Notes: generated by a model not told the origin, from the letters alone. 64,000 nt of DNA from Bdellovibrionales bacterium (GCA_965205945.1 CBDBIB010000003.1:288001-352000); one strand, 5' to 3'. Positions 4,812 through 41,348 are shown, counted from the first letter of the stretch. Program-made: numbers and translations.

Positions 4812-5794
4812 AAAAGCTTTTATTAATGGTAGTGTCAGTAGTTACTAGTGCACAAGTATTTGCAACAGGACAAATGCCACTCCAGGCTAATAAATATGCT
4901 ACAAAAGTAGATAGTTTATATAATTTCTTATTAATTGTAAGCTTAATTTCTTGTATTCTTGTAATTGGTGGAATGATTTTTTTTGTTGTTAAATACAAGA
5001 GAAAAACTGCTGATGATGATACCCCTTATATTTCACACAATAGCACTTTAGAGTTTTTATGGAGTTTTATTCCATTTTTAATTTTTTTATTTGTATTTGT
5101 CTGGGGGTGGAAGCTTTTTCATGAGACAAAAACATATCCTAAAAATGCTTTTGAAATTCATGTTTTTGGGCGTCAGTGGAGTTGGGATTTTCAGTATAAA
5201 AGTGGGAAAATGACAACAAATGAGTTTGTGGTTCCTATTGGTAAACCTATTAAGCTTATTCTAACATCAACTGACGTTCTTCACTCATTTTTTATTCCTT
5301 CCATGAGAATCAAGCAAGACGTGGTTCCAGGAATGTATTTAGCAATGTGGTTTCAGGCAGATAAGGAAGGTGAATTCCAAATTTTTTGTACTGAATACTG
5401 TGGTAAAAACCATTCTAGAATGCATGCAAAACTTAAAGTTGTTTCACAAATTGAGTTTGAAGAATGGTTAGCTAACGATCCAATGAAGAAATACGAAGGA
5501 ATGGGGCTTGTTCAAAGAGGTAAGATGGTTGCTAAAGAGAAAGCTTGTACTGTATGCCACAGTTTTATAGAAGATAAGGTTTTAGTGGGTCCATCTTTAA
5601 AAGGTGCTTTTGGGCAGATTAGGGAATTAACAGATGGTTCAAAGGTTAAATTTGATGAGGCTTATATTATTGAAAGTATTAAAAAGCCTCAGGATAAGAA
5701 ACCTGTAGGTTTTAAAAATGGGGTTATGTCCTTAGTTCCTATAAGTGATCAAGAAATTTCTTGGATCATTGAATATATAAAATCAAACAAGTAA
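4808..5794 (+). CDS. coxB: Cytochrome c oxidase subunit II with fused cytochrome c (caa3 type)
   Basis: DVLHSF and CTEYCGKNHSRM CuA ligands; C-terminal CTVCH. Confidence 0.97.
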   Translation: MKKLLLMVVSVVTSAQVFATGQMPLQANKYATKVDSLYNFLLIVSLISCILVIGGMIFFVVKYKRKTADDDTPYISHNSTLEFLWSFIPFLIFLFVFVWGWKLFHETKTYPKNAFEIHVFGRQWSWDFQYKSGKMTTNEFVVPIGKPIKLILTSTDVLHSFFIPSMRIKQDVVPGMYLAMWFQADKEGEFQIFCTEYCGKNHSRMHAKLKVVSQIEFEEWLANDPMKKYEGMGLVQRGKMVAKEKACTVCHSFIEDKVLVGPSLKGAFGQIRELTDGSKVKFDEAYIIESIKKPQDKKPVGFKNGVMSLVPISDQEISWIIEYIKSNK

Positions 5795-5807
5795 AGGAGA
5801 GCTTTAG

Positions 5808-7385
5808 ATGCCTCAACTGGGCCAAAATTATTTAAATCATGAAAAAGGCTTATGGTCTTGGTTAACTACTTTAGATCATAAAAAGATTGGGATTATGTAC
5901 ATGATTGCAGTGTTTATTTTCTTTTTTATTGGCGGAGTTTTTGCAATGCTTATTAGGCTTGAACTTTTTAATGCAGACCCATTATTTCAAGCACAAACAT
6001 ATAATCAGATGATGACATATCATGGGGCGATTATGACCTTTATGGTTATTATTCCAGGGATTCCTGCATTTATTGGGAATTTTATTCTTCCACTTTTAAT
6101 TGGTGCAAAAGATGTAGCCTTTCCAAGAGTTAATTTGATGAGTTGGTACTGCTTAATAGTGGGTGCTGCAATTTCTTTTGCAACATTATTTTTTACAGGA
6201 ATTGATACAGGCTGGACTTTTTATACTCCCTACTCCATTCAAACAAGTGGGACTGTTTTAATGGTTTTAGGAGCTTTTGTAATGGGATTTTCGTCTATTC
6301 TTACAGGGCTTAATTTTATTGTAACGGTTCACAAGCTAAGAGCTCCAGGAATGGATTTTTTTAAGATGCCTTTAATGGTCTGGGCTTTATACTCAACTGC
6401 TATTATTCAGGTATTGGCAACTCCAGTACTAGCAATTACACTTTTTTTACTAGCTTGTGAGAGTATTTTTGGAGTAGGTATATTTGATCCAGCTCTTGGA
6501 GGTGATCCTGTATTGTTTCAACACTTTTTTTGGTTTTATTCTCACCCAGCTGTTTACATTATGATTTTACCAGCAATGGGTATTATTTCAGAAATTATCA
6601 CCACTTTTTCAAAAAAGACAATTTTTGGTTATAAGGCTATTGCTTTTTCAAGTCTTGGTATTGCTGCTGTAAGTTTCTTTGTTTGGGGTCACCATATGTT
6701 TGTTAGTGGGCAATCTCAACTTGCAGGTGTTGTATTCTCATTTATTACAATGTTAGTGGGTGTTCCTACGGCAATTAAAACATTTAACTGGGTTGCTACA
6801 ATGTATAAGGGATCAATTCAATTAAGAAGCCCGATGCTTTTTGCTTTAGGCTTTTTGTTTCTTTTTACGATTGGTGGTGTTACAGGAATTATGTTGGCCG
6901 TTTTAGCTGTTGATGTTCATTTTCATGATACGTATTTTGTTGTTGCTCATTTTCACTATGTAATGGTTGGTGGAACATTAATGGCAATTATGGGTGGGGT
7001 TTATTATTGGCTTCCAAAAATGTTTGGGAAAATGTATAATGAGTTTGGTGCACAGATTTCGTTTTTATTTATTTTTTTGGGTTTTAATATCACATTTTTC
7101 CCACAGTTTATTTTAGGCTCTCAGGGTATGCCAAGAAGATATCATGAGTACCTTGCCGCATTTGAATCTTTAAATAGGATTTCAAGCATAGGTGCATGGA
7201 CAATTGGTGTGGGTTTTTTAGTAGGCCTTATAGTTATCTTACAGTGTATTTTAAAAGGGGAGAAGGCACCAAAAAATCCATGGGGTGGTAAGACTCTTGA
7301 ATGGGAGGCTGAATCTCCGCCCATTCATGAAAACTTTGAAAAGCAACCAGTGGTCAACGCCGGCCCTTATGAGTATGGAAGGTAA
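5808..7385 (+). CDS. coxA: Cytochrome c oxidase subunit I, A2 type
   Basis: [18 protein letters not shown] (YS motif marks type A2), VWGHHM and VVAHFHY. Confidence 0.98.
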
Positions 7386-16096: not shown

Positions 16097-16243
16097 TCTT
16101 TCCCCCCTTAAAATAAGATATCGTTATGACGTATATTATCAACCTTACTATAGTTTTATGCAAGTAATAAACCCCCCACGCCTCTCAGTATTACTTATGG
16201 TCCTATTGATTACCCCTCTGGTTTCTTGTACTTCACTTTTATA

Positions 16244-16608
16244 ACCCGAGTTGGGACTTTTCCAAGGATCTAAGTATAAATAAAAGATCACCTTAAGCCT
16301 TTTGTAAGATATAGTTTTTTTTACTCTGATCTGAAAAAAAGGAGCTTTGAATGATCAAAGAGAACCAAATTATAGAGATTTTTACTCTTGTTGACGATTT
16401 TATTTTAGGACTAAATTACGAACAGCGCAAACTCACACCCAGCAAAAGGAAGAGTTTCACATTGAACACTCCAGACATCCAAGTCCTAAAAACTTTATAG
16501 TGAATCTTTTATGAGCATTGACTAGGTATTGTCTGCGTCCTTTTAAACCGACAATACGTGCCATGAAAATAGAGTGTTAAACCAGATTTAAAAAGTCCAA
16601 ACTCGGGT
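16244..16608 (+). mobile_element. IS982-family internal-deletion derivative
   Basis: IRs acccgagttgggactttt / aaaagtccaaactcgggt. Transposase N-terminus MIKENQIIEIFTLVDDF is joined to C-terminus HIEHSRHPSPKNFIVNLL. Confidence 0.88.
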
Positions 16609-17210
16609 TAACTAAACATAAATCTTATAAGTCGATCAAATTTCCTGTTATCAGCTTCTTGAAGTGAACTAATGTATTCGTCTCTTATTGTACCCTCGAC
16701 ATCTATTGTGTCTTCAGGTTTATGTATTCCCCACGAGAGCATGGGGCTATCGTGTTGCTGTAGTAAAATCTCAGTCATTAAACGTGCGTGCCGGCCATTG
16801 CCATTGGGGAAGGCGTGGATTTGGACTAGTCGGTGGTGAAAGCGCACAGCCATTTCTTTCCATGGATAAGTATCGTTTTCGATCCAATATTTTGTATCAT
16901 CGAGTAATTGCTTTAATTGGGTTGGGATATGACGCCAATCTATACCAATGCTCTTGTCTGACTGTCTTTGATGACCAGCCCACTTCCAAACATCGCTTAA
17001 CATTCGTTTGTGCAAGTTGAATACAAAATTTATTTCTAACAAATTCTTATGGTTTTTGCCGTCAGACCATTTTATAGCTTTACTGATATTATCTTTTTCA
17101 AGTGAATTAAGCTCTCCCTGAGTTGTAATATAATCTGGTATTAAACCATTTACTTCATTTGGATCAAGAGGAGTGGACCCCTTGGGGTATTTAAAATCAA
17201 TTTTAGTCAT
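16608..17210 (-). CDS. Mobile mystery protein B (Fic domain)
   Basis: GSTPLDP N-terminus; Fic motif IHAFPNGNGRHAR. Confidence 0.92.
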   Translation of the reverse strand: MTKIDFKYPKGSTPLDPNEVNGLIPDYITTQGELNSLEKDNISKAIKWSDGKNHKNLLEINFVFNLHKRMLSDVWKWAGHQRQSDKSIGIDWRHIPTQLKQLLDDTKYWIENDTYPWKEMAVRFHHRLVQIHAFPNGNGRHARLMTEILLQQHDSPMLSWGIHKPEDTIDVEGTIRDEYISSLQEADNRKFDRLIRFMFS

Positions 17211-17695
17211 TTGTTTTTTGATCCTTTATCCCAAATTCTAGAGTCCACATCATCTTTTAGTTCTTTGATCATCTTTTTAAGTTCTGACGTGCTTGTGCCT
17301 GTTCCTTGTTTCTCAAGCTGCATGGTGTGTTGGGTTTGTTTTAAAATCTTTCTAGCAAAGCCCTCTGCATAAACATTTATAATTTCATCAAGGCTTGAGT
17401 ATTTCTCCTTCGGCACGATGGCATATACGAGCTTACAGTCCATAGCATCGGCAGCCTTTTTTAGAATATCTAAGGTAACCTTACCTTCAGCTTCTCGTTT
17501 TTCAATTCTTAGTGCTGTGGCCTGGTTAATGCCCATTAGTTTCGCTAGTTGGTATGTAGACATGCCTAGTGCGCCTCTAATCGCCTTAATCCATCCAGAT
17601 GGGGGAGTTTTATCACTACGAACAGCCCTCCACCCTTTGAGCTTTTTCTCAATAACATCTCTTTGCGTTTTGGTTTTCTTCTTATTGATTTTCAT
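17207..17695 (-). CDS. Mobile mystery protein A (XRE HTH regulator)
   Basis: PPSGWIKAIRGALGMS..QLA..., EAEGKVTL, MDCKLVYAIVP, HTMQLE. ATG 17695 is preferred over TTG 17734; overlaps the Fic start (ATGA). Confidence 0.9.
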   Translation of the reverse strand: MKINKKKTKTQRDVIEKKLKGWRAVRSDKTPPSGWIKAIRGALGMSTYQLAKLMGINQATALRIEKREAEGKVTLDILKKAADAMDCKLVYAIVPKEKYSSLDEIINVYAEGFARKILKQTQHTMQLEKQGTGTSTSELKKMIKELKDDVDSRIWDKGSKNK

Positions 17696-17701
17696 AAGAT
17701 A

Positions 17702-17791
17702 TATAATGCTATAAAAGGCATTATAAGTAAACAATAAAATGCTATTTAAGACATTATAAAATAACTTTATAATGCTATTTACAGCATTATA
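17702..17791. promoter_or_regulatory. Three palindromic operators TATAATGC-N8-GCATTATA at 33-bp period
   Basis: tataatgctataaaaggcattata (17702), taaaatgctatttaagacattata (17735), tataatgctatttacagcattata (17768), directly upstream of the HTH gene. Confidence 0.8.
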
Positions 17792-17891
17792 AACGTACGC
17801 TAAGAAACATCATAGCGTGAGTTTGATTTAATATTTCGCAATAAAATCAGGTAGTTAAAGTTTTTACCATGTCTTAAATTGAGAAACATAC

Positions 17892-18700
17892 TTAATTCCT
17901 AGTTAGCCGAGGGAATCTAATCTTGAATACAGACGAAGCTCCAGTTTCCATATCCTCTCCGTGGGCTATAAGCACAGCTCCCATCCCGGCGGGTAGGGTC
18001 TTTAAAAGGTCCAGCAAAGCTCTAAACTGGTGTGCCTCTTTTTGTGATCCTTCGCCAATGGCTTCAGTTAAATCTACACAGAGTTGGTAACTCTCTAAGT
18101 GACCTTTTGATAAATTTCAGTACCAAAAGACCTTGCAAAAAAATCAGCAGAGTCAGGGTCATTTATCCCAAGTACAATCTTTGTGGCTGAGTTGTCCGTG
18201 ATTCGGCTTAAAAAGCCTTGTGCAACTTCTGCGAGATCACCAATGCTTTGGTGAGAGAAGTGTAGGGCAAGCCCTACTGAGCGAACTTTATAAATAAGGT
18301 CTGCAAACTCAGGACAAGCAAAACTAGCAAACTCATCTAAATAGGTTGGGATGAGTTTAACTTTTTTTGCTTTATTTCCTCTATGTGCGATTCCGGCCAA
18401 ATAGTTGAGTTGGTTGATAATTAGTTTTCCAAGAATTGTAACAAGCTGGGGGGACATCAAGCTTTGAAGACGGAAATATAAAACAGTACCTTCTTCAGCT
18501 AAGCTAAAATCCATGTCGGACTTATTCCGTAGGGGATAGGGTTGTATTTAAGTGACCAATTGAAAGAGATCTTATTTGGTCTCTAAGGCCTGATAGTTTA
18601 GAAAAGTCTTTTTCGGCCTGTTTTTAGGGTAATTTTCACTAGTTACAGAGGAGCTAAATGTTTCAGGGTCGGACCCCATGTCCATTATGAAAATGGAGCG
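17892..18700 (-). pseudogene. TraD/VirD4-like type IV coupling protein, C-terminal remnant with stops and frameshifts
   Basis: YLDEFASF, HFSHQSIGDL and DPDSADFFARSFGT. The tail GEGSQKEAHQFR...LKTLPAG lies in another frame. 5' boundary approximate. Confidence 0.8.
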
Positions 18701-18754
18701 GATGTCCGAAGACTATCTAACCGCCTTAAATCTCTCATTTTTGTGAGTGAAACA

Positions 18755-18930
18755 GTAAGCCCTTCATCAGCCCCACTGTTGACAGCTATTTAGTAGATCA
18801 GCCAAAGCTTCATAATCTTTAAGGGTTTGAGCAGCAGGTAATTTGTTAAACATCTCAGTCGTCACTGTAAATGGATCTTTACCGTTAACTTTTTTAAGCG
18901 CCCTAAAATAGACCCCCTATGAGCTGATAA
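18755..18930. mobile_element. IS66-family remnants (right end plus tnpC tail on minus strand, abutting a second end)
   Basis: GTAAGC terminus at 18755; minus strand reads VNGKDPFTVTTEMFNKLP..KDYEALADLL. taagcgccctaaaatagaccccctatga at 18895 matches the end at 9576. Confidence 0.7.
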
Positions 18931-19202
18931 CCTCATGGTAGAGGCTATGAGAACTGAAATTAAAGCATAGCCGGAGTTAGATCTGATTAGAAAATTTAGG
19001 GGGGAAAGATATTTTACAAGCTCTTGCCCTAATCTCTACGATCAAGTTCTGACCCTTAAAAATCATGTGAACAAATCTCAATAAGTTCATCTCCTCTATT
19101 GGTTCCCAAGTTTTTAAACATCACTGACTCCTTTTTTTATAAAATAAATCATTTTTTTTATCCTCTTTTTTTTTGTTTTTTTAAATGTGAACTTAGAGAT
19201 TT

Positions 19203-19771
19203 TTAATCTGGCCAAAGTTTCCCAAGATTAAACTCAAGATCCTTAAATGGAGGAGCTTTCACTAGATCGTCTTTTTCAAAAATAAGGTCTGCTTTATAGC
19301 TTTTTCCATCTAAAATTAAAACTTCTAACACCCTATTTAGTGGATCAACAATCCAGTAATAAGGAACCTTGTTTTCAGCATAAATTTTTAACTTAGATAT
19401 TCTATCATAACGAGCTGTTGAGGGGGACAATACTTCACAAGCCCAATCAGGAGCTACAGAAAAATATACTTTTTCTGCGAGCTTAGGAAGCCTTTCTCTT
19501 TTTCAGCCTCCTACATCAGGAACAATAACTTGATCTTTTAAATGAACTTCTGGTTCAAATAAAATCCACCACCCCCCAGGACCATTTTCTCCTAGTTGAT
19601 AAGGTGCAAAAAAATAGATCCTATTGCCGAACTTGCATTAGCATGTTCAAACCCAGGCCTTGGGCTCACAACAAGCTCTCCGCTTATAGTTTCACCAACA
19701 ACATTTTTAGAAAGAGCACATAAATCTTCATACAAATCTTTAAATGTTTTTTTCTTTAGTGCTTCACTCAT
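19203..19771 (-). pseudogene. Uma2 family endonuclease pseudogene
   Basis: GELVVSPRP...GPGGWWILFEPE...VPDVGG*KRERLP...APDWACEVLSPST...YWIVDP. Frameshift in the A7 run at 19608-19614 and TGG>TGA at 19503-19505. Confidence 0.88.
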
Positions 19772-20039: not shown

Positions 20040-20159
20040 ATGAAAGTAATTTCTGTATGTAATAGAAAAGGGGGCGTTGGGAAAGCTACAACCTCAGCCC
20101 ATATTGGCGCAGGCCTTGCACATTTTGGAAACAAAGTCTTGTTAATAGACCTATTATGA
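20040..20159 (+). pseudogene. ParA/Soj ATPase N-terminal fragment
   Basis: MKVISVCNRKGGVGKATTSAHIGAGLAHFGNKVLLIDL*; truncated where IS66-derived DNA begins. Confidence 0.85.
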
Positions 20160-20230
20160 ATCCTTGTGTAAAAAGTTTATAAGGGGCCTTCCTAAACAAA
20201 AGGCGTGTAATGTTAGAAAAGAACTTAGCT
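20155..20230 (+). mobile_element. IS66-derived fragment homologous to 9600-9676
   Basis: tatgaatccttgtgtaaaaagtttataag...aggcgtgtaatgttagaaaagaacttagct aligns with the earlier remnant. Confidence 0.75.
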
Positions 20231-20231
20231 A

Positions 20232-20358
20232 ACCCGAGTTAGAATTTTTCTAAGGACCTAAGTTTTGAATAAAAGATCACCTTAAGCCTTTTGTAAGATG
20301 TGGTTGTTTTTTAAATCTGATCTATAAAAAAGAGCTTGGAAAAATCCTAACTCGGATT
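20232..20358 (+). mobile_element. IS982-derived MITE (about 127 bp)
   Basis: acccgagttagaatttttc ... gaaaaatcctaactcggatt; internal aaagatcaccttaagccttttgtaagat is shared with the copies at 16244 and 21354. Confidence 0.85.
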
Positions 20359-20464
20359 TACTAAAGTCTAAATTCAGATTAAATATTAAAAAACTATTTT
20401 TTTAATTCATAGGGTTAGATAGAGTATTAGAGTTTATACGATATAAAATAAATGAGGTATTCAT

Positions 20465-21277
20465 ATGAATAAAATCATTCAATTACTATTAATTACAACT
20501 ACCCTATTGAGTTTAGCTGCTTGTGGATCTAGTAGTCCAGATCCTGATTTATGTGTTGGTTCTTCTTGTGGAGCTAGTAAGCCAGATCCTAATCCTAATC
20601 CTAATCCAGACCCTGATTCTGATTTATGTCTTGATTCTTCTCCCACCCCAGGAACCGTGTGTAAGGGTGGAGCAATTTATCTTGGAAGCCTTAGCCCAGG
20701 TGCCACTAATGGTAGTGGAACAGATCGCTATATGACCACCCCTGGGGGTTGTGGAGATATTCCATTAGGAAGTGTTTCAGGAGGTTCGGGGACAAACTCT
20801 TATGCATTAGATGATTTTACAGTGACTTGTTCTGGTACTGATAGTTTACGTAAAAGGTGGAATGGTTCAGATGATTGGTATGATATTCCAGGGCTAGTAA
20901 ACTACACATTAACTACTGGAACTGGTTATGGTGAAATTAATAAAGATGCAAATTACGGTTCAGCGAATACAGATGCAATTGTTGCCATAACTTCACCGGA
21001 TCAAGGGGGTTATCACCCAGCAGCAAGGTACTGTGATAAGCTTGATTATGGTGGTTATGATGATTGGCATTTACCTAACCGCTATGAGCTTAATTTAATG
21101 TACACAAATCGCCTTGTTCTTCCAGGTTTAGATAAGAGGAGTATTAGTGGTATATGGTATTGGTCGTCTACGGAGAACGCTACTGCCTATGCGTGGATCC
21201 AGCGGTTTTATAATGGCCGTCAGGATACCGATGGTAAGGGCGGTTTTCACTTTGTTCGTTGTGTGCGGCGGTTTTGA
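20465..21277 (+). CDS. DUF1566 (Lcl C-terminal / C-type-lectin-fold) lipoprotein; probable DGR target
   Basis: Lipobox LAAC, (PD/PN)n linker, YCDKLDYGGYDDWHLPNRYEL, YWSST...AW...F..G...VRCVRRF. Confidence 0.88.
   Translation: MNKIIQLLLITTTLLSLAACGSSSPDPDLCVGSSCGASKPDPNPNPNPDPDSDLCLDSSPTPGTVCKGGAIYLGSLSPGATNGSGTDRYMTTPGGCGDIPLGSVSGGSGTNSYALDDFTVTCSGTDSLRKRWNGSDDWYDIPGLVNYTLTTGTGYGEINKDANYGSANTDAIVAITSPDQGGYHPAARYCDKLDYGGYDDWHLPNRYELNLMYTNRLVLPGLDKRSISGIWYWSSTENATAYAWIQRFYNGRQDTDGKGGFHFVRCVRRF
21155..21277 (+). other. Putative DGR variable repeat (VR)
   Basis: The final 40 sense codons include none ending in A. Scaffold residues use TCG/ACG/GCG/CGG and loop residues are all NNY. Confidence 0.7.
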
Positions 21278-21309
21278 GGGTTAAAAGGATTCATGAGCCC
21301 TTTAGTTCT

Positions 21310-21346
21310 TTTATCTTAAGGAGGCTTAAAGCCTCCTTAAGATAAA
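21310..21346. terminator. 17-bp perfect hairpin with 3-nt loop (terminator and/or DGR homing hairpin)
   Basis: tttatcttaaggaggct-taa-agcctccttaagataaa, starting 33 bp after the stop. Confidence 0.7.
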
Positions 21347-21353
21347 CTATTTA

Positions 21354-21691
21354 ACCCGAGTTCGGACTTTTCCCAGGATCTAAGTCCTGTATAAATAGAA
21401 GATCACCTTAAGCCTTTTGTAAGATGTAGTTAATTTTTTACTCTGATCTGAAAAAAGGGGCTGGGAATGATCAAAGAGAACCAAATTATAGAGATTTTTA
21501 CTCTTGTTGACGACTTTATTTTAGGACTAATTTACGAACAGCGCAAACTCACACCCAGCAAAAGGAAGAGGGGTTTTCCCTCTGGGTTATCTGAAGTCAT
21601 CACAATTTCTTTGTTGCTCCAGTTTTCTGGTTTCAGAAATTTTAAAACTTTTTATCCAGGGCTTAGGTTCTGGATAAGTTCGAATTCGGGT
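21354..21691 (+). mobile_element. IS982-family truncated derivative (transposase fragment 21467-21694)
   Basis: acccgagttcggactttt ... aagttcgaattcgggt; MIKENQIIEIFTLVDDF...LSEVITISLLLQFSGFRNFKTFY. Confidence 0.88.
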
Positions 21692-22329
21692 TAGATACTA
21701 TCAAGCTGTTTGCAAGGGTGAGCTTTTTTAAATGCATCAAGTTTTAGGCAGTTTTTTTCAATATCTAAAAGCTGTTGAAGGTCTGACATATCAATATCAT
21801 ACCTGTGGGCATTATAAAGCTGTGGAATTAAAAACATATCAGCTGCTGAAGGTTCATCACTTCCTAAAGAAAATAAGGTGTCAGGGGTAAGCTTGGCTTG
21901 ATAGGCTTTTAAACCTTTTTTAATAAAATATTTAGTCCAATCGTTTACTTGTTTTTCACATATATTGTAGTCTTTTTTGAGCTTTTTTAAGACTGTGAGG
22001 TTTTGTAGAGGCTGAGTTCCACTGTTAATGATTTCTATAAGTTCTAAGCATTGCTCAAAATAAGGGAATTCTTTTGGAAAAAGAGGGGATTTAATGTACA
22101 TGCGATCAAGATAGAGAAAGATTGCCGTGCTTTGAGAAAGGGTGATATTTTTATCAATTAGTATAGGAACTTCTTTTTTAGGGTTAAGCTTAGTGTAGTC
22201 TTGAAAAAGATGTTCTCCGCCATTTTTTATAAGATTTATGGGAATGTACTTAAAGGCTAGGTTTTTGTGATTTAGGGCTATTCTAACACGATATGAGCAA
22301 GAGCTCCTATAGTAACTGTAAAGCTTCAT
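21691..22329 (-). CDS. maiA: Maleylacetoacetate isomerase (GST zeta)
   Basis: LYSYYRSSCSYRVRIAL and SGTQPLQNL; divergent from the FAH-family gene. Confidence 0.94.
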   Translation of the reverse strand: MKLYSYYRSSCSYRVRIALNHKNLAFKYIPINLIKNGGEHLFQDYTKLNPKKEVPILIDKNITLSQSTAIFLYLDRMYIKSPLFPKEFPYFEQCLELIEIINSGTQPLQNLTVLKKLKKDYNICEKQVNDWTKYFIKKGLKAYQAKLTPDTLFSLGSDEPSAADMFLIPQLYNAHRYDIDMSDLQQLLDIEKNCLKLDAFKKAHPCKQLDSI

Positions 22330-23359: not shown

Positions 23360-23908
23360 ATGTTAAAATTATTTTTAATAAAAACCGAAATCTCGTTATT
23401 AAAATCTTAGGCCTTTGGGTTTAGAGAGAAAACTCTTTTTTTAGAGTTAGAGATTTAAGAGAATAAAAACAGAGTGTTGTTAGAGTTTTTAGTGAGTTAA
23501 TCTAGGGGGCTTAGCGTAAGAAATTTGCTTGCTGGGGCGTGTGAGGGATCAGCCAGAGTTCTTGTCTATTTAAAGTGTTGTAAATATCTCCTTAGCCATA
23601 GATAATAAAGGAATTAAAGAGTCTTCCTTAAAAAAAGAATCTAAAATTATAAACTCTACAAAGACTAGTGATTCTTTAATTATAAAACAAACTGCTCTTA
23701 AAAAAAAGAATATAAAAAACAAAGAAGCTTCATACAAAGTTGATCCAAAGGATTTTAAACAAACCCTTATCCAGGGTAAAACAAAAACAAAAAATGTTGT
23801 AAAAAAAATAAAAATATAACTAGAAGTTTAACATCTTTAATAAATAATAAAGCTCTTTTAAAAGAAGCTTTATTAGATGATAATAATAAAGATTCTATAT
23901 TTTATGGA

Positions 23909-24895
23909 ATGACAGATCTTCAAAAAAGCTTATGTAAGAAGGTTCTTAAATCTGGAGATGAGAAGGGAATTAGGGCTGCGTGCCTTCAATCAATAAATGC
24001 TGCATGGTTTCTGGATCGAGACAATTCTATGTCTGATGTAAATGATGATGCAAGCAAAGCACTTTATATATTATCAAGCAAAAGAGGACGAGTAGTGCTT
24101 ACTCAAATTTGTCCTGGAGTTTTTGTAACTGTAGCACATGCAGCAATTTCTAATAAGGTTTTATCTTATAAAGGGGAAGCTTTAAAAAAATTTTTAGCAA
24201 GTAGGGCTGGAGAAAGAATTAGAATTTATTCTTTTCCTTACACACGAGGCAAATATTTTAACGGAGAGTCTATAAACTTTGAGTATTTTGGAGAACGCTT
24301 AAGTAAACCTGAAGCTTTTAATAACCCTTTTGATGGCTATTTAATATTAAAATTAAAACCATTAGAGGCAAAAGCCTACGCAAAATCTAAGGGGTTTAGG
24401 TACAATCCTGAGTATTATATTACCCCAGTGTCAGCTTTTGCTGAAAAAATTAAAAGGGCTTCTGATAATAAAGAAATTGATATTCACCTTTATAGAGGAA
24501 GAACACGGTTTAATTTTGATAACGAAGCTAAAACTCCTGTTATTAATGAGGAAGGTCACTTTTAGGCAAGGACTATGTCACCATTTTTAAGTAAGATTTT
24601 TGATGTACCTCAAAGAGTTAATGTACGGTGTGAAATTGGATTTGGTGGCAGGAATTTTATAAGACATTCATGTCCAACAGAAAATGGAGTGTTTTCGAGT
24701 CCTTATATTTTTAAAAAGAATAAAAAGTTTTATTTAGTTGGTATTCATCACAGCGGAAACGGTAGGCGTGAAGAAAAATTTTATAATAATCATAATGGAA
24801 GTGCTACTTGCTTACTATCTGCTGCTTTTTGTAAAGATTATGAAAAAGCTTGTGGTAAACCCTGCTTAACTTTAGAAAAAGTGCTTTCTATATAA
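23909..24895 (+). pseudogene. Degenerate trypsin-like serine protease split by an in-frame TAG (24563-24565)
   Basis: Both ORFs are in one frame. ICPGVFVTVAH resembles the His motif, CPTENGVFSSP is a degenerate GxSGSP, followed by YLVGIH. The upstream Lys-rich region is frameshifted. Confidence 0.6.
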
Positions 24896-25493
24896 AAACT
24901 TAACTCTTATGTATTATTTATCTGACAATCTAGAGTTAAATTTTTGTTTTTTAAAGACTCTGAGCCTGCAACTATGTGAAAATATAAACTCTTTGAGGTA
25001 CATCAAATAAGTGTAAATTTAGAAGAAAATAGGGTAAATCAATTCTGGTCTTTCCAAATGGAGAATGTGGCACTCATCATTGAGAGCTGCAACTTTAAAT
25101 GTGCAGGACAGCCTTTATATTTTAGGGCCAATGAGGCATTGTTGCCTTCATGGGCTTTACTGAGATCTTCTCCATTTGCATCCATAAGAATTTGATGTGG
25201 GGAATGAGCTTAGCTCTTAAGTACATAAGTGGTCTGCTTGATCTTTTAGTGATTAGCTCTCCATGATCTAAGAGCTTTCCTTTTTCAATTTTACAAGCTG
25301 TCTCACATGTAGATAGTACGGCTATTAGGTAATTATCAACTTCTTGGTGTTTCATATATGGTCTAGACTCTAGACCAAGTGAGAGTCTCATAAAACGCCA
25401 CACAGCCTCTCGGTATTGTAATAATGGGTCAATTCGGTCAATTCGAATTAATGCGGAATAAATTTAAATTTTTTAATAGTTTATTCCGATAAT

Positions 25494-38933: not shown

Positions 38934-41348
38934 ATGACGGCAGCAAGTAGAATTTTAATAATCATTGGATTAATATTAACATTATTTGGATGTGGACAAA
39001 ATATTCTTAGCAGCAAAAAAAAATCTACAGTTGGAGAGGGTTTTAATAATGATGAGATAGTTGATCTTTCTTTAAGCTCTTCTCTTCCCAATATTACATT
39101 AAAAAACTCAAGTGCTTATCCTTTAAGTGGTGTGTGTGATTCTGCTTCTGGGATTGTAACTGTTGTTATAGGTACTCCTAATGTCACAGGAATTTTTCAG
39201 TGTGATTTAAGCGGTTATTTTTCAGGTATAATGGATGTGAGTACTGTGACTCTAAACCCACCAAATATTAAAGCAAGTCAGGCAAATCAGACCGTTTCTA
39301 TTAGTTCTCTTGTAAATGATCAAACTCCTATTTCTGATGCTCCAACAGTAGCAGATCAAAATTATAAAAATGGAACACAGGTAGCACTAGGTGTAGCTTG
39401 TAATGAAGCCGGAGAGGTAGTGACATTTACAAACCCATCATTGAGTCCAAATTCACAAACGTATACTTGTCAAGGTCAGGGGGCTGAAAGCGTAACATTC
39501 CTTTTTGCAACAGGGCAGGAAACTTTAAATACAAATAATGTTACAGTAAGTTCTGTAGATGTAAATGGTAACCCAACAACAAATTCTAATGAGTTTAACT
39601 TACCAATAGATAATGTAGCACCAACAGTGCAGGTACAAGCAGGTGCAGGTATTATAGAAGGAAATAATGCAAGCTTTACAGTGAGCGTAACTGATGGAAC
39701 TAGTTTTGTAGCATTTACACCTACACCAAGCTCAGGAACGATAAGCTCAGGTGTTTGTTCTCTAAGTCCATGTACAGTAACTGTAACAGGAGCCAGTGTA
39801 GGAGAATTAACTTTAACTGTAGCAGTAGGTGCGGTGACAGATGTAGCAGGAAACTCAAATGCATCACTTCAAACTGATAGTTTATTGGTTAGTGCTCCAC
39901 AAATAACAGGGGTTCAAATATCATCAAATGATGGAGATTCTGATACATGGTATGAAACTTCAGATTCAATTTCTATTCAAGTACAGTATGATGCTAATGT
40001 TACAGTAGATACTGTCGGTGGCACACCAACCATCTTGGTTACCTTATCTAGTGGGACTAAAACAGCAACATATTCTACAGGCTCGGGCTCTCAGAATTTA
40101 GAGTTTACGATGTCTATTCTAGCTGATGATTATCAATGCAATGGGACTTTAGATTTAGGCGGAATAAGTTTAAACGGTGGTACAATTAAAGGTGGTGGAG
40201 GCGGAATTGCTAACAATTCGGGTTTACCGTCTTCTGTAGCTGGAGCAAAGATAGATGCTAAAAATCCTACAGCTCCGAGTACTCTTAACGCTGATTTGGA
40301 TGCGTTTAATAATCTGTCGAGTAGTTTATCTTGGACTCAAGGCACTGATGAATGTGGACTTTCAAACATTGAATATGGTTTTGGAACTAGTTCAGGAGGC
40401 TTGGATATTCAAAGTTATATAGATATAGGTTTGGTAGAAACCTATCAAGCAGAAAAGAATATAGGTCTAGCTTCTTCATTTAACTTAATTGCAGGTACTG
40501 ATTACTATACATCAATTAGATCTGTAGATAATGCTGGAAATCTATCGTCAACAGCGACTAGTTCGGCATGGAGTTTTACTTGTTCAGATCCATGGGCTGG
40601 TATAAATAGAGTTATTGCTCTAGGTAGTTCGAATAAAGCCTCTATTATTGATGGGAATAGTGTAAGTGCTGAAGATTCTAGCTTTGATGATTTTGTTCAG
40701 ACCTGGCAAGATCAAAGTGGGAATAACAATCATTTAGAAGCACCTTCCTCTCAAGTAAGGCCAAGTTATGGTTCTGATAACAGTTCAACTTCAAAGTTAG
40801 AATCATATGTCCAAGGTGATGGAGTGGATGATACATTAGTCAAAGATTTTGCTTCGAGTATTACAGGAAATTTTATATTTTATTATGTGTTAAAGTCTTT
40901 AAATCAGGCGCCTGTTGAGTTTCAAAGTTATTTTAGTAGTGTTAGTAGTGGTGACGATGTTGGAGGTTTTCAGCTAGATCATGGTGGGTCATCGAGAGGA
41001 TGCGATGGCAAATTTAGAATACTTATAAAAGATATAGCGAGTGATCCTCCGTTGTCTATTTGTGGTTCTGATTACGATAACGATCAACATGTATTTGCTG
41101 TTAAATATAGCGAGGATGCTAGTGGCGTTAAAACAATGTTTTTATCTGTGGATGGATCAGAAACTAATTCTAGAACTTTATCTAATCCCGCAGATTTTAG
41201 TTCTTTAAGGTTATTTCAGAATAGAGGAGGCAATAACTTTCAAGAAGCTCAGGCATTAGAGTTAGGTGTAGCAACTGGAACTATAACTGAGGCTCAAGAA
41301 AAGCAAATAACTGATTACTTAATTTGTAAGTGGAATGTGAGTTTATAA
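38934..41348 (+). CDS. Surface lipoprotein adhesin, short paralog (Ig-like domains plus C-terminal LamG/ConA-like domain)
   Basis: Lipobox LFGC, S/T/V/G-rich beta domains with Cys pairs, WQDQSGNNNHL...GDGVDD. Confidence 0.8.
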   Translation: MTAASRILIIIGLILTLFGCGQNILSSKKKSTVGEGFNNDEIVDLSLSSSLPNITLKNSSAYPLSGVCDSASGIVTVVIGTPNVTGIFQCDLSGYFSGIMDVSTVTLNPPNIKASQANQTVSISSLVNDQTPISDAPTVADQNYKNGTQVALGVACNEAGEVVTFTNPSLSPNSQTYTCQGQGAESVTFLFATGQETLNTNNVTVSSVDVNGNPTTNSNEFNLPIDNVAPTVQVQAGAGIIEGNNASFTVSVTDGTSFVAFTPTPSSGTISSGVCSLSPCTVTVTGASVGELTLTVAVGAVTDVAGNSNASLQTDSLLVSAPQITGVQISSNDGDSDTWYETSDSISIQVQYDANVTVDTVGGTPTILVTLSSGTKTATYSTGSGSQNLEFTMSILADDYQCNGTLDLGGISLNGGTIKGGGGGIANNSGLPSSVAGAKIDAKNPTAPSTLNADLDAFNNLSSSLSWTQGTDECGLSNIEYGFGTSSGGLDIQSYIDIGLVETYQAEKNIGLASSFNLIAGTDYYTSIRSVDNAGNLSSTATSSAWSFTCSDPWAGINRVIALGSSNKASIIDGNSVSAEDSSFDDFVQTWQDQSGNNNHLEAPSSQVRPSYGSDNSSTSKLESYVQGDGVDDTLVKDFASSITGNFIFYYVLKSLNQAPVEFQSYFSSVSSGDDVGGFQLDHGGSSRGCDGKFRILIKDIASDPPLSICGSDYDNDQHVFAVKYSEDASGVKTMFLSVDGSETNSRTLSNPADFSSLRLFQNRGGNNFQEAQALELGVATGTITEAQEKQITDYLICKWNVSL

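Follow-up and report, generated by a model that had tools for sequence, protein, structure and literature searches.

The stretch of DNA analysed here (the 'window', 64,000 nucleotides of a Bdellovibrionales genome, G000) carries an intact gene for a small lipoprotein, whose 3' end aligns to the template repeat (TR) of a diversity-generating retroelement (DGR) in a second genome of the same genus (G003, a Bdellovibrionales MAG). The gene is followed by two inverted repeats and has pieces of IS982-family elements on either side. The features of the gene and its immediate flanks are:

20226..20341, plus strand: left-end fragment of an IS982-family element, without transposase, 79% identical to positions 5768-5883 of G003 locus L013 (cassette A)
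20465..21277, plus strand: lipoprotein gene, probably a former DGR target; intact reading frame of 270 aa with a C-terminal Lcl_C domain
20465..20524, plus strand: signal peptide with lipobox LSLAAC (Cys20), from direct reading of the translation
21160..21272, plus strand: variable region (VR) of 113 nt, delimited by ungapped alignment to the G003 TR
21287..21300, plus strand: proximal small inverted repeat, GGATTCATGAGCCC, from side-by-side comparison of 3' flanks
21310..21346, plus strand: distal 17-bp inverted repeat (hairpin) 3' of the VR, conserved among the paralogs
21345..21694, plus strand: IS982 left end with a truncated transposase reading frame (21467-21694, 75 aa), 82% identical to L013 5765-6090

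Direct reading of the translation gives MNKIIQLLLITTTLLSLAAC as the N-terminus of the protein, with the lipobox cysteine at position 20; LSLAAC agrees with the lipobox pattern [LVI][ASTVI][GAS]C. The same N-terminus is found, without a single change, in three G003 paralogs (L002, L003 and L005). A linker rich in Pro, Asp and Asn separates the signal peptide from a C-terminal domain that belongs to the Pfam family Lcl_C (PF07603, formerly DUF1566; aa 183-268, E 1.1e-14), with a score of 55.2 bits against a gathering threshold of 34.9. The original prediction, made from the DNA of the window, had described an intact lipoprotein with a C-terminal DUF1566/CLec-type domain, and the 270-aa reading frame, the lipobox and the Pfam match bear that description out.

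An AlphaFold2 model of the protein, built with an input of 46 homologs, has a mean pLDDT of 85.8, with values mostly above 94 in the Lcl_C domain and a disordered linker over the first ~50 residues; homologs of the protein carry the label Pseudobdellovibrionaceae. A profile made from the 46 homologs matches the C-terminal domain of Legionella Lcl (8q4e, E 8.6e-15). Structural alignment of the model recovers a Bacteroides fimbrial protein (4eps, Z 11.9), the same Legionella Lcl domain (Z 11.8, rmsd 2.6 over 120 residues), the C-terminal domain of Bdellovibrio Bd2740 (8oks_A, Z 9.4, rmsd 2.1 over 100 residues), many snake-venom C-type lectins (Z ~7) and the Treponema DGR protein TvpA (2y3c, Z 6.5). 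The fold of the modelled domain is C-type-lectin-like, of the Lcl_C kind, and the VR lies at its C-terminus; DGR targets carry their VRs at the end of a ligand-binding domain with a C-type-lectin or Ig fold.

The last part of the gene differs from the rest in its composition. From 21155 to the stop codon, none of the 40 codons ends in A, as compared to 60 of the 230 codons upstream (26%), an outcome with a probability of ~5.6e-6 when computed from the gene's own rate; genome-wide, the proportion of A-ending codons is 35.4% (442 long open frames). Of the 1834 stop-to-stop frames with 100 or more codons in the window's own genome, only 6 contain a run of at least 40 codons that never end in A, the gene under study being among these six (one of the other five overlaps a spot that is very adenine-rich on the opposite strand). 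The base composition shifts from 27.8% A and 22.8% G upstream to 15.8% A and 32.5% G in the last 40 codons, within a genome of 32.5% GC. The codons TCG, ACG, GCG, CGG and GTG, previously noted as rare ones used at scaffold positions, are indeed rare by a genome-wide count (2.0, 4.1, 3.2, 0.6 and 8.9 per 1000 codons, respectively); CGG accounts for only 1.7% of the Arg codons of the genome, yet three copies are present in the last 40 codons. Direct reading of the VR finds every variable codon to be NNY. Thus the compositional claims of the original prediction (a run of 40 codons free of third-position A, rare scaffold codons and NNY loop codons) all stand. Composition of this kind might in principle belong to an ordinary DUF1566 gene, unrelated to any DGR, in which chance or selection had shaped the C-terminal codons, and the five other frames with comparable runs, together with the lack of a TR or an RT in the gene's own genome, would be in keeping with such an explanation.

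The decisive comparison is provided by G003, the only one of 40 relatives in which a DNA search found matches. These comprise 12 long paralogs (83-96% identity) and three VR-only matches of 109 nt, the latter being identical TRs located between genes for bAvd and RT. At L013, the cassette runs in the order of a 1248-aa target ending in Lcl_C, two inverted repeats, bAvd, a 113-nt TR and the RT; bAvd belongs to PF22296 (E 2e-16) and the RT to PF00078 (E 1.1e-17), and the TR is rich in AAY codons. Three complete cassettes are present (L013, L014 and L015), of which cassette A carries an additional 1019-bp IS982 at the 5' end of its RT gene that cassettes B and C are without. The VRs of the three cassettes differ from the TR at 8, 8 and 14 adenines, respectively, and at no other base. 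Because the 18 differences between cassettes A and C (in 3017 nt) fall almost entirely in the VR, where 16 of them are located, all at TR adenines, this type of element looks, on the distribution of its substitutions, to have been recently active in G003.

Twelve loci of G003 bear a VR (within L002-L019). Ten are open through the VR and two (L018 and L019) are frameshifted, while 9 of the 12 are without an adjacent TR and RT, one of these nine (L012) keeping an avd-like remnant. The sister species holds a rich DGR system. For comparison, a maximum of seven non-adjacent targets, in Treponema, is quoted in the available text of Wu et al. 2018 (PMC5758913), a number that the nine non-adjacent VR loci of G003 exceed. 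Within the family, RTs at least 55% identical over their full length were found in 7 of the 109 genomes searched, and RT matches at E<=1e-5 in 26 of the 109, with none in the window's own genome; the loci of 15 other RT relatives display only partial similarity to the TR, the best (L025) being 87% identical to the G003 TR over 83 nt. Searches with exact patterns of the VR/TR scaffold, to which divergent relatives would be invisible, returned no match in JGI metagenome contigs or in IMG/VR viral contigs. The long G003 target was also considered as a sequence relative of the solved MAT (mosaic adhesive trimer) fibres, and was rejected as such when only its Lcl domain matched.

When the 113-nt VR of the window is aligned to the G003 TR, which is the TR of a congener rather than one from the same genome, 27 mismatches are found, of which 21 fall at the 36 adenines of the TR and 6 at its 77 other bases (Fisher p 1.7e-8). 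The codons GTG CGG CGG of the window gene, for example, correspond to GTA CGG AAG in the TR, altered at three adenines. In the window VR, the TR-adenine sites are occupied by A in 15 cases, G in 13, C in 7 and T in 1, and the 13 G and 7 C account for its G+C-rich appearance. The same bias emerges when the window VR is considered together with the 12 VRs of G003 (13 in all, a pseudogene copy from the window's own genome being left out): 31 of the 36 TR-adenine columns vary, versus 21 of the 77 others (p 3.5e-9).

These results answer two expectations that had been set out beforehand, namely that mismatches to a template should be biased to its adenines and that paralogs should exist that share the scaffold of the VR. 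Taken with the Lcl_C fold and the conserved hairpin, they uphold the identification of the C-terminal 113 nt which, judged by its alignment to the TR, is a true DGR variable region. The form that had been predicted for the template itself was close to that of the G003 TR in general, but erred at gcgtggATCcag, which is scaffold there and not an AAY codon. An ordinary DUF1566 gene would have to match, without gaps and over 113 nt, a congener's TR that is flanked by bAvd and an RT, and to do so with differences concentrated at adenines both in the single alignment and in the family of VRs; the TR match and the adenine bias effectively refute that alternative, to which next to no probability is assigned.

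The alignment carries a further piece of information. Because six of its mismatches are at bases other than adenine, the template from which the window VR was copied must have differed somewhat from the G003 TR. Five of the six (at TR positions 51, 53, 73, 90 and 92) are common to the window VR, to its G003 counterpart (L002) and to the pseudogene L019, and these shared differences suggest, as the cognate template, a variant TR now missing from both genomes. When such a variant was sought in G003, with the window VR as the query, only the three known TRs were found.

The genome from which the window is taken (1.87 Mb in 5 contigs, 97.3% complete) was searched for the remainder of a DGR in several ways. 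For the RT, the Pfam profile PF00078 (RVT_1) gave no match at E<=1, a profile built from 13 DGR-clade RTs reached a best E of 0.21 when all filters were disabled and 30,255 six-frame pieces of the genome were searched, and tblastn with the G003 RT matched only its aa 1-24, which are encoded by the end of the IS982 in cassette A. For Avd, no match at E<=1 was obtained in this genome by tblastn with the G003 bAvd, or with PF05635 (23S_rRNA_IVP), a family used as a stand-in for Avd, which matches the G003 bAvd only weakly (E 0.0019). For the TR, blastn-short (word size 7) and blastn with the G003 TR recovered nothing from the genome beyond the VR itself and a single pseudogene VR. A scan that allowed mismatches at adenines, conducted on both strands of all 5 contigs, found no TR either. 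The false best match of that scan (C2:105679-105976) is a very adenine-rich stretch with a recurring unit of ~30 nt. The pseudogene VR (C3:139775-139898) was itself weighed as a TR and rejected, since it is not adenine-rich, differs at 16 non-adenine positions, has gained 3 nt by insertion, and leads into an identical stop codon and 3' flank; it is a decayed paralogous VR.

The expectation that a TR and an RT would lie elsewhere in this genome thus finds no support: five kinds of search of a 97.3%-complete assembly revealed neither, the short-word BLASTn search that had been proposed for a copy of the TR produced no such copy from the same genome, and the DGR-clade RT and avd that had also been proposed as objects of search were both found in G003 instead. 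TR, Avd and RT are absent from the assembly, one contig end of which falls within a copy of IS982, and a cassette might conceivably be hidden between contigs or on an element missing from the assembly. The possibility that follows is that of an active remote target, served by machinery in an unassembled gap, plasmid or prophage. DGRs are able to serve remote targets in trans (as described in the available text of PMC5758913), 9 of the 12 VR loci in G003 have no TR and RT next to them, the reading frame, the 3' end of the VR and the distal hairpin are all intact in the window, and an assembly in 5 contigs is not a closed one. Set against these considerations, five independent searches uncovered no RT, Avd or TR, not even as fragments, and the flanks and the allelic history of the VR, considered below, provide additional evidence on the same point.

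On the 3' side, the proximal inverted repeat GGATTCATGAGCCC is a weaker version of a palindrome that is perfect in paralog L005, where it reads GGGCTCATGAGCCC, with other copies carrying other variants; the two palindrome substitutions of the window are common to its G003 counterpart. The distal inverted repeat is real. Positions 21310-21346 match their own reverse complement over 37 nt (97%), and the DNA fold of 21270-21360 has a free energy of -22.2 kcal/mol (z -6.5), with none of 200 shuffles as stable. Among the 12 G003 copies, a long form of this hairpin is present in 9, a shortened form in 2, and none in 1 (L019); the 3' flank of the G003 cassette folds in the same way as that of the window. 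The hairpin after the VR that had originally been described is therefore confirmed, and an inverted repeat downstream of a VR is a feature of DGR targets.

What follows the distal hairpin differs between the window and the cassettes: in the cassettes avd begins after ~60 nt, whereas in the window the left end of an IS982 begins after ~8 nt, occupying the place where avd follows in intact cassettes. Tblastn with aa 1-67 of the G003 IS982 transposase gave an 81% match at C3:309467-309661. IS-like junctions of the window type are also present in two G003 copies (L005 and L016). The upstream IS982 fragment (20226..20341) lies within a 1.5-kb block that the window holds in common with G003; this block (20157-21661) is 95.8% identical to a G003 stretch (L020) whose flanks differ from those of the window. 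By comparison, the segments of the window that make up its syntenic core are 82-87% identical to G003, so that the ancestor of the block must be more recent than that of the two genomes. The block is also not syntenic: the GST gene that neighbours the lipoprotein gene in the window is found in G003 at a distance of ~50 kb from the counterpart. And because the G003 copy has the IS junction as well, avd, TR and RT were absent before the two copies split.

Two accounts of this arrangement may be given. According to the first, the gene is a vertically inherited relic whose own adjacent cassette was lost through an IS982-mediated deletion, with no horizontal movement of the block. The IS982 end does lie exactly where avd begins in the cassettes, and a smaller genome (1.87 Mb, as compared to ~2.4 Mb for G003) with two other decayed copies would fit reductive loss. 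That account is judged unlikely, given a block that is markedly more similar to G003 than its neighbouring core genes are, the difference in genomic context, and a junction that places the loss before the copies diverged. According to the second, the 1.5-kb IS-bounded block probably moved as a unit, as its identity and its displaced context would indicate. Elsewhere in the window's genome (C2:261457-262429), an IS982 copy encodes a transposase whose amino-acid sequence is 98.95% identical to that of the element in G003 cassette A, as compared to 82-87% for the core genomes, and this near-identity suggests that the two species have recently shared mobile DNA. A bolder form of the second account, in which the IS982-bounded block would travel from one Bdellovibrionales species to another as a mobile module, without need of the retroelement, is offered tentatively and is regarded as rather doubtful.

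Further traces of mobile DNA are found in the window. Upstream of the gene lies a degraded mobile island (16242-19430), which contains the following:

16242-16616: IS982 end fragments
16608-17210: Fic/DOC protein
17207-17734: HTH partner of the Fic/DOC protein
18095-18514: fragment of a TraG/TraD coupling protein
19203-19430: fragment of a Uma2 endonuclease

At 23698-24898, two adjacent reading frames (218 aa and 106 aa) are without a Pfam match, and the DNA of the pair is present in at least 6 copies in G003 (75-77% identity). A third region, 39300-41000, matches more than 25 places in G003 (69-78%), many of them ~850 bp apart in tandem, and on that pattern looks like a repeated gene or domain family.

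The question of whether the window VR is still subject to rewriting was addressed by comparison with its counterpart in G003, to which the gene is 96% identical. Out of 22 adenine sites that are substituted in either VR, 17 are shared, whereas the median number shared is 4 when all 91 pairings of VRs are considered; the two VRs differ at 6 positions, of which 5 are TR-adenine sites. Independent retrohoming events would re-randomise most adenine sites. Sharing to the extent of 17 in 22 therefore means that neither copy has been rewritten since the two split, despite the presence of three cassettes in G003. This lack of rewriting may be explained by loss of the variant template, or it may be explained by the weakened proximal palindrome. 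As for the few differences at TR-adenine sites, they could reflect relaxed or positive selection on putative binding residues, or they may be the product of an unusually patchy form of retrohoming. The original prediction of present-day hypervariability finds no support in these observations, the sister species carrying the same VR allele.

The same observations bear on the active remote target introduced above. The VR allele persists in G003 alongside three cassettes, no rewriting has occurred over the whole divergence of the block (~4%), and the proximal palindrome has been weakened by two substitutions; in combination with the empty searches of the genome, they leave an active target as a very unlikely interpretation, less probable than that of a vertically inherited relic.

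The reading frame remains intact both in the window's genome and in the G003 counterpart. The ratio dN/dS between the two copies is ~1.4 (4 synonymous and 19 non-synonymous differences), and purifying selection on the gene, which was considered as an indication of continued function, consequently finds no support in this comparison. Elsewhere in the genome, related copies are decaying. In the one at C3:139775-140096, a TGG codon has become a TGA stop, ~200 nt have been deleted internally and the hairpin is truncated, while the strongly diverged VR differs from the TR at 18 adenine sites and 16 others, with a 3-nt insertion. At C1:283789-285338 (minus strand; L006 1793-3049), a 418-aa fibre-type reading frame, a homolog of the fibre-like part of the long DGR targets in G003, breaks off shortly ahead of where an Lcl_C domain would begin, and beside it C1:283789-283977 matches nt 464-664 of the window gene (74% identical). 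Only one Lcl_C match above threshold is left in the whole genome. The state of these copies has the look of a DGR system in decay.

The reading that we consider quite probable is that of an orphaned and frozen DGR target, which has been diversified in the past and whose machinery is gone, rather than that of a working hypervariable receptor. In an active system of this type, RT and Avd would make a cDNA copy of the TR that contains errors at its adenines, and this copy would then replace the VR; the 113-nt VR of the small lipoprotein would have been written by such mutagenic retrohoming, presumably from a variant TR that is absent today from both genomes. The machinery would subsequently have been lost, leaving an IS982 end immediately after the VR-proximal hairpin in the place of avd, TR and RT, and leaving the VR as a frozen allele, a 'fossil' of past diversification. 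The 1.5-kb block would have reached its present site as a unit, by transfer or transposition, with the machinery already missing. The protein may now be a surface binding protein of fixed specificity, or it may be drifting towards decay. The role in prey or host recognition that had been suggested for it is conjecture.

Several known systems resemble the frozen target and its active relatives in part. One of these is the Legionella pneumophila lipoprotein LdtA, which the available text of Wu et al. (PMC5758913) describes as surface-displayed and as the exemplar of category 'd', comprising VRs of the DUF1566 type. As in the available descriptions of LdtA, a short lipoprotein carries its VR in a C-terminal DUF1566-type domain, with AAY codons in the template (as in DUF1566/CLec2 targets). 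The likeness to LdtA is one of description; the Pfam family of the window domain is shared with the C-terminal domain of Legionella Lcl. LdtA, in contrast, lies within a complete DGR, whereas the genome of the window is without TR, Avd and RT.

Treponema denticola offers a parallel for dispersal, in that one TR serves many scattered C-type-lectin-like/FGE-like targets, as compared to 12 VR loci and three identical TRs in G003, and remote targets are described for DGRs in the available text of PMC5758913. The model of the window protein also aligns to TvpA, as noted above; TvpA, however, is of the FGE type and the window protein of the Lcl_C type, and the remote targets of Treponema coexist with an RT while the target in the window does not.

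The DGR of Bordetella phage BPP-1, with its target Mtd, has an IMH and a hairpin downstream of its VR. It is like the present family in placing the VR at the extreme 3' end of the gene, in an adenine-poor scaffold and in inverted repeats after the VR, and, where the G003 cassette is concerned, in an accessory gene of the Avd family accompanied by an RT. It differs in that the G003 system has the order target-avd-TR-RT, is chromosomal and displays no phage genes, and in that two inverted repeats follow the VR in the G003 cassette.

The fourth comparison is with Bdellovibrio bacteriovorus itself. The C-type-lectin tip of its fibre Bd2740 is likened to Mtd in the available text of Caulton et al. 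2024 (PMC10769870), which contains no report of a DGR in Bdellovibrio. The modelled domain of the window protein resembles this tip, and the host is likewise Bdellovibrio-like, but the protein is a 270-aa lipoprotein and not a trimeric fibre with a long body and a capping tip domain, so that only the tip fold is comparable; it has no match to MAT fibres at the level of sequence and is not counted among them. A full-text search of the literature for DGRs in connection with Bdellovibrio, to the extent that the texts were available, found none in such bacteria, although the supplementary tables of large surveys may list DGRs from Bdellovibrionota.

For the study of DGRs, the case indicates that a compositional signature (the absence of A-ending codons, the use of rare non-A codons and the presence of NNY loop codons) can by itself flag a true VR even where the retroelement has gone, and orphan VRs could accordingly be sought out as fossil records of earlier DGR activity. 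One course that the end of a DGR can take is documented too, with its machinery lost, IS remnants at the junction, one target fixed and other copies decaying. If the block were indeed a mobile module, a genome without a DGR could acquire ready-made receptor alleles that had been generated by a DGR elsewhere. For the Bdellovibrio-like bacteria, Lcl_C-tipped lipoproteins and long fibre-like proteins now join the targets of DGRs, and, if such proteins bind prey, this would bear on how these bacteria vary their recognition of it.
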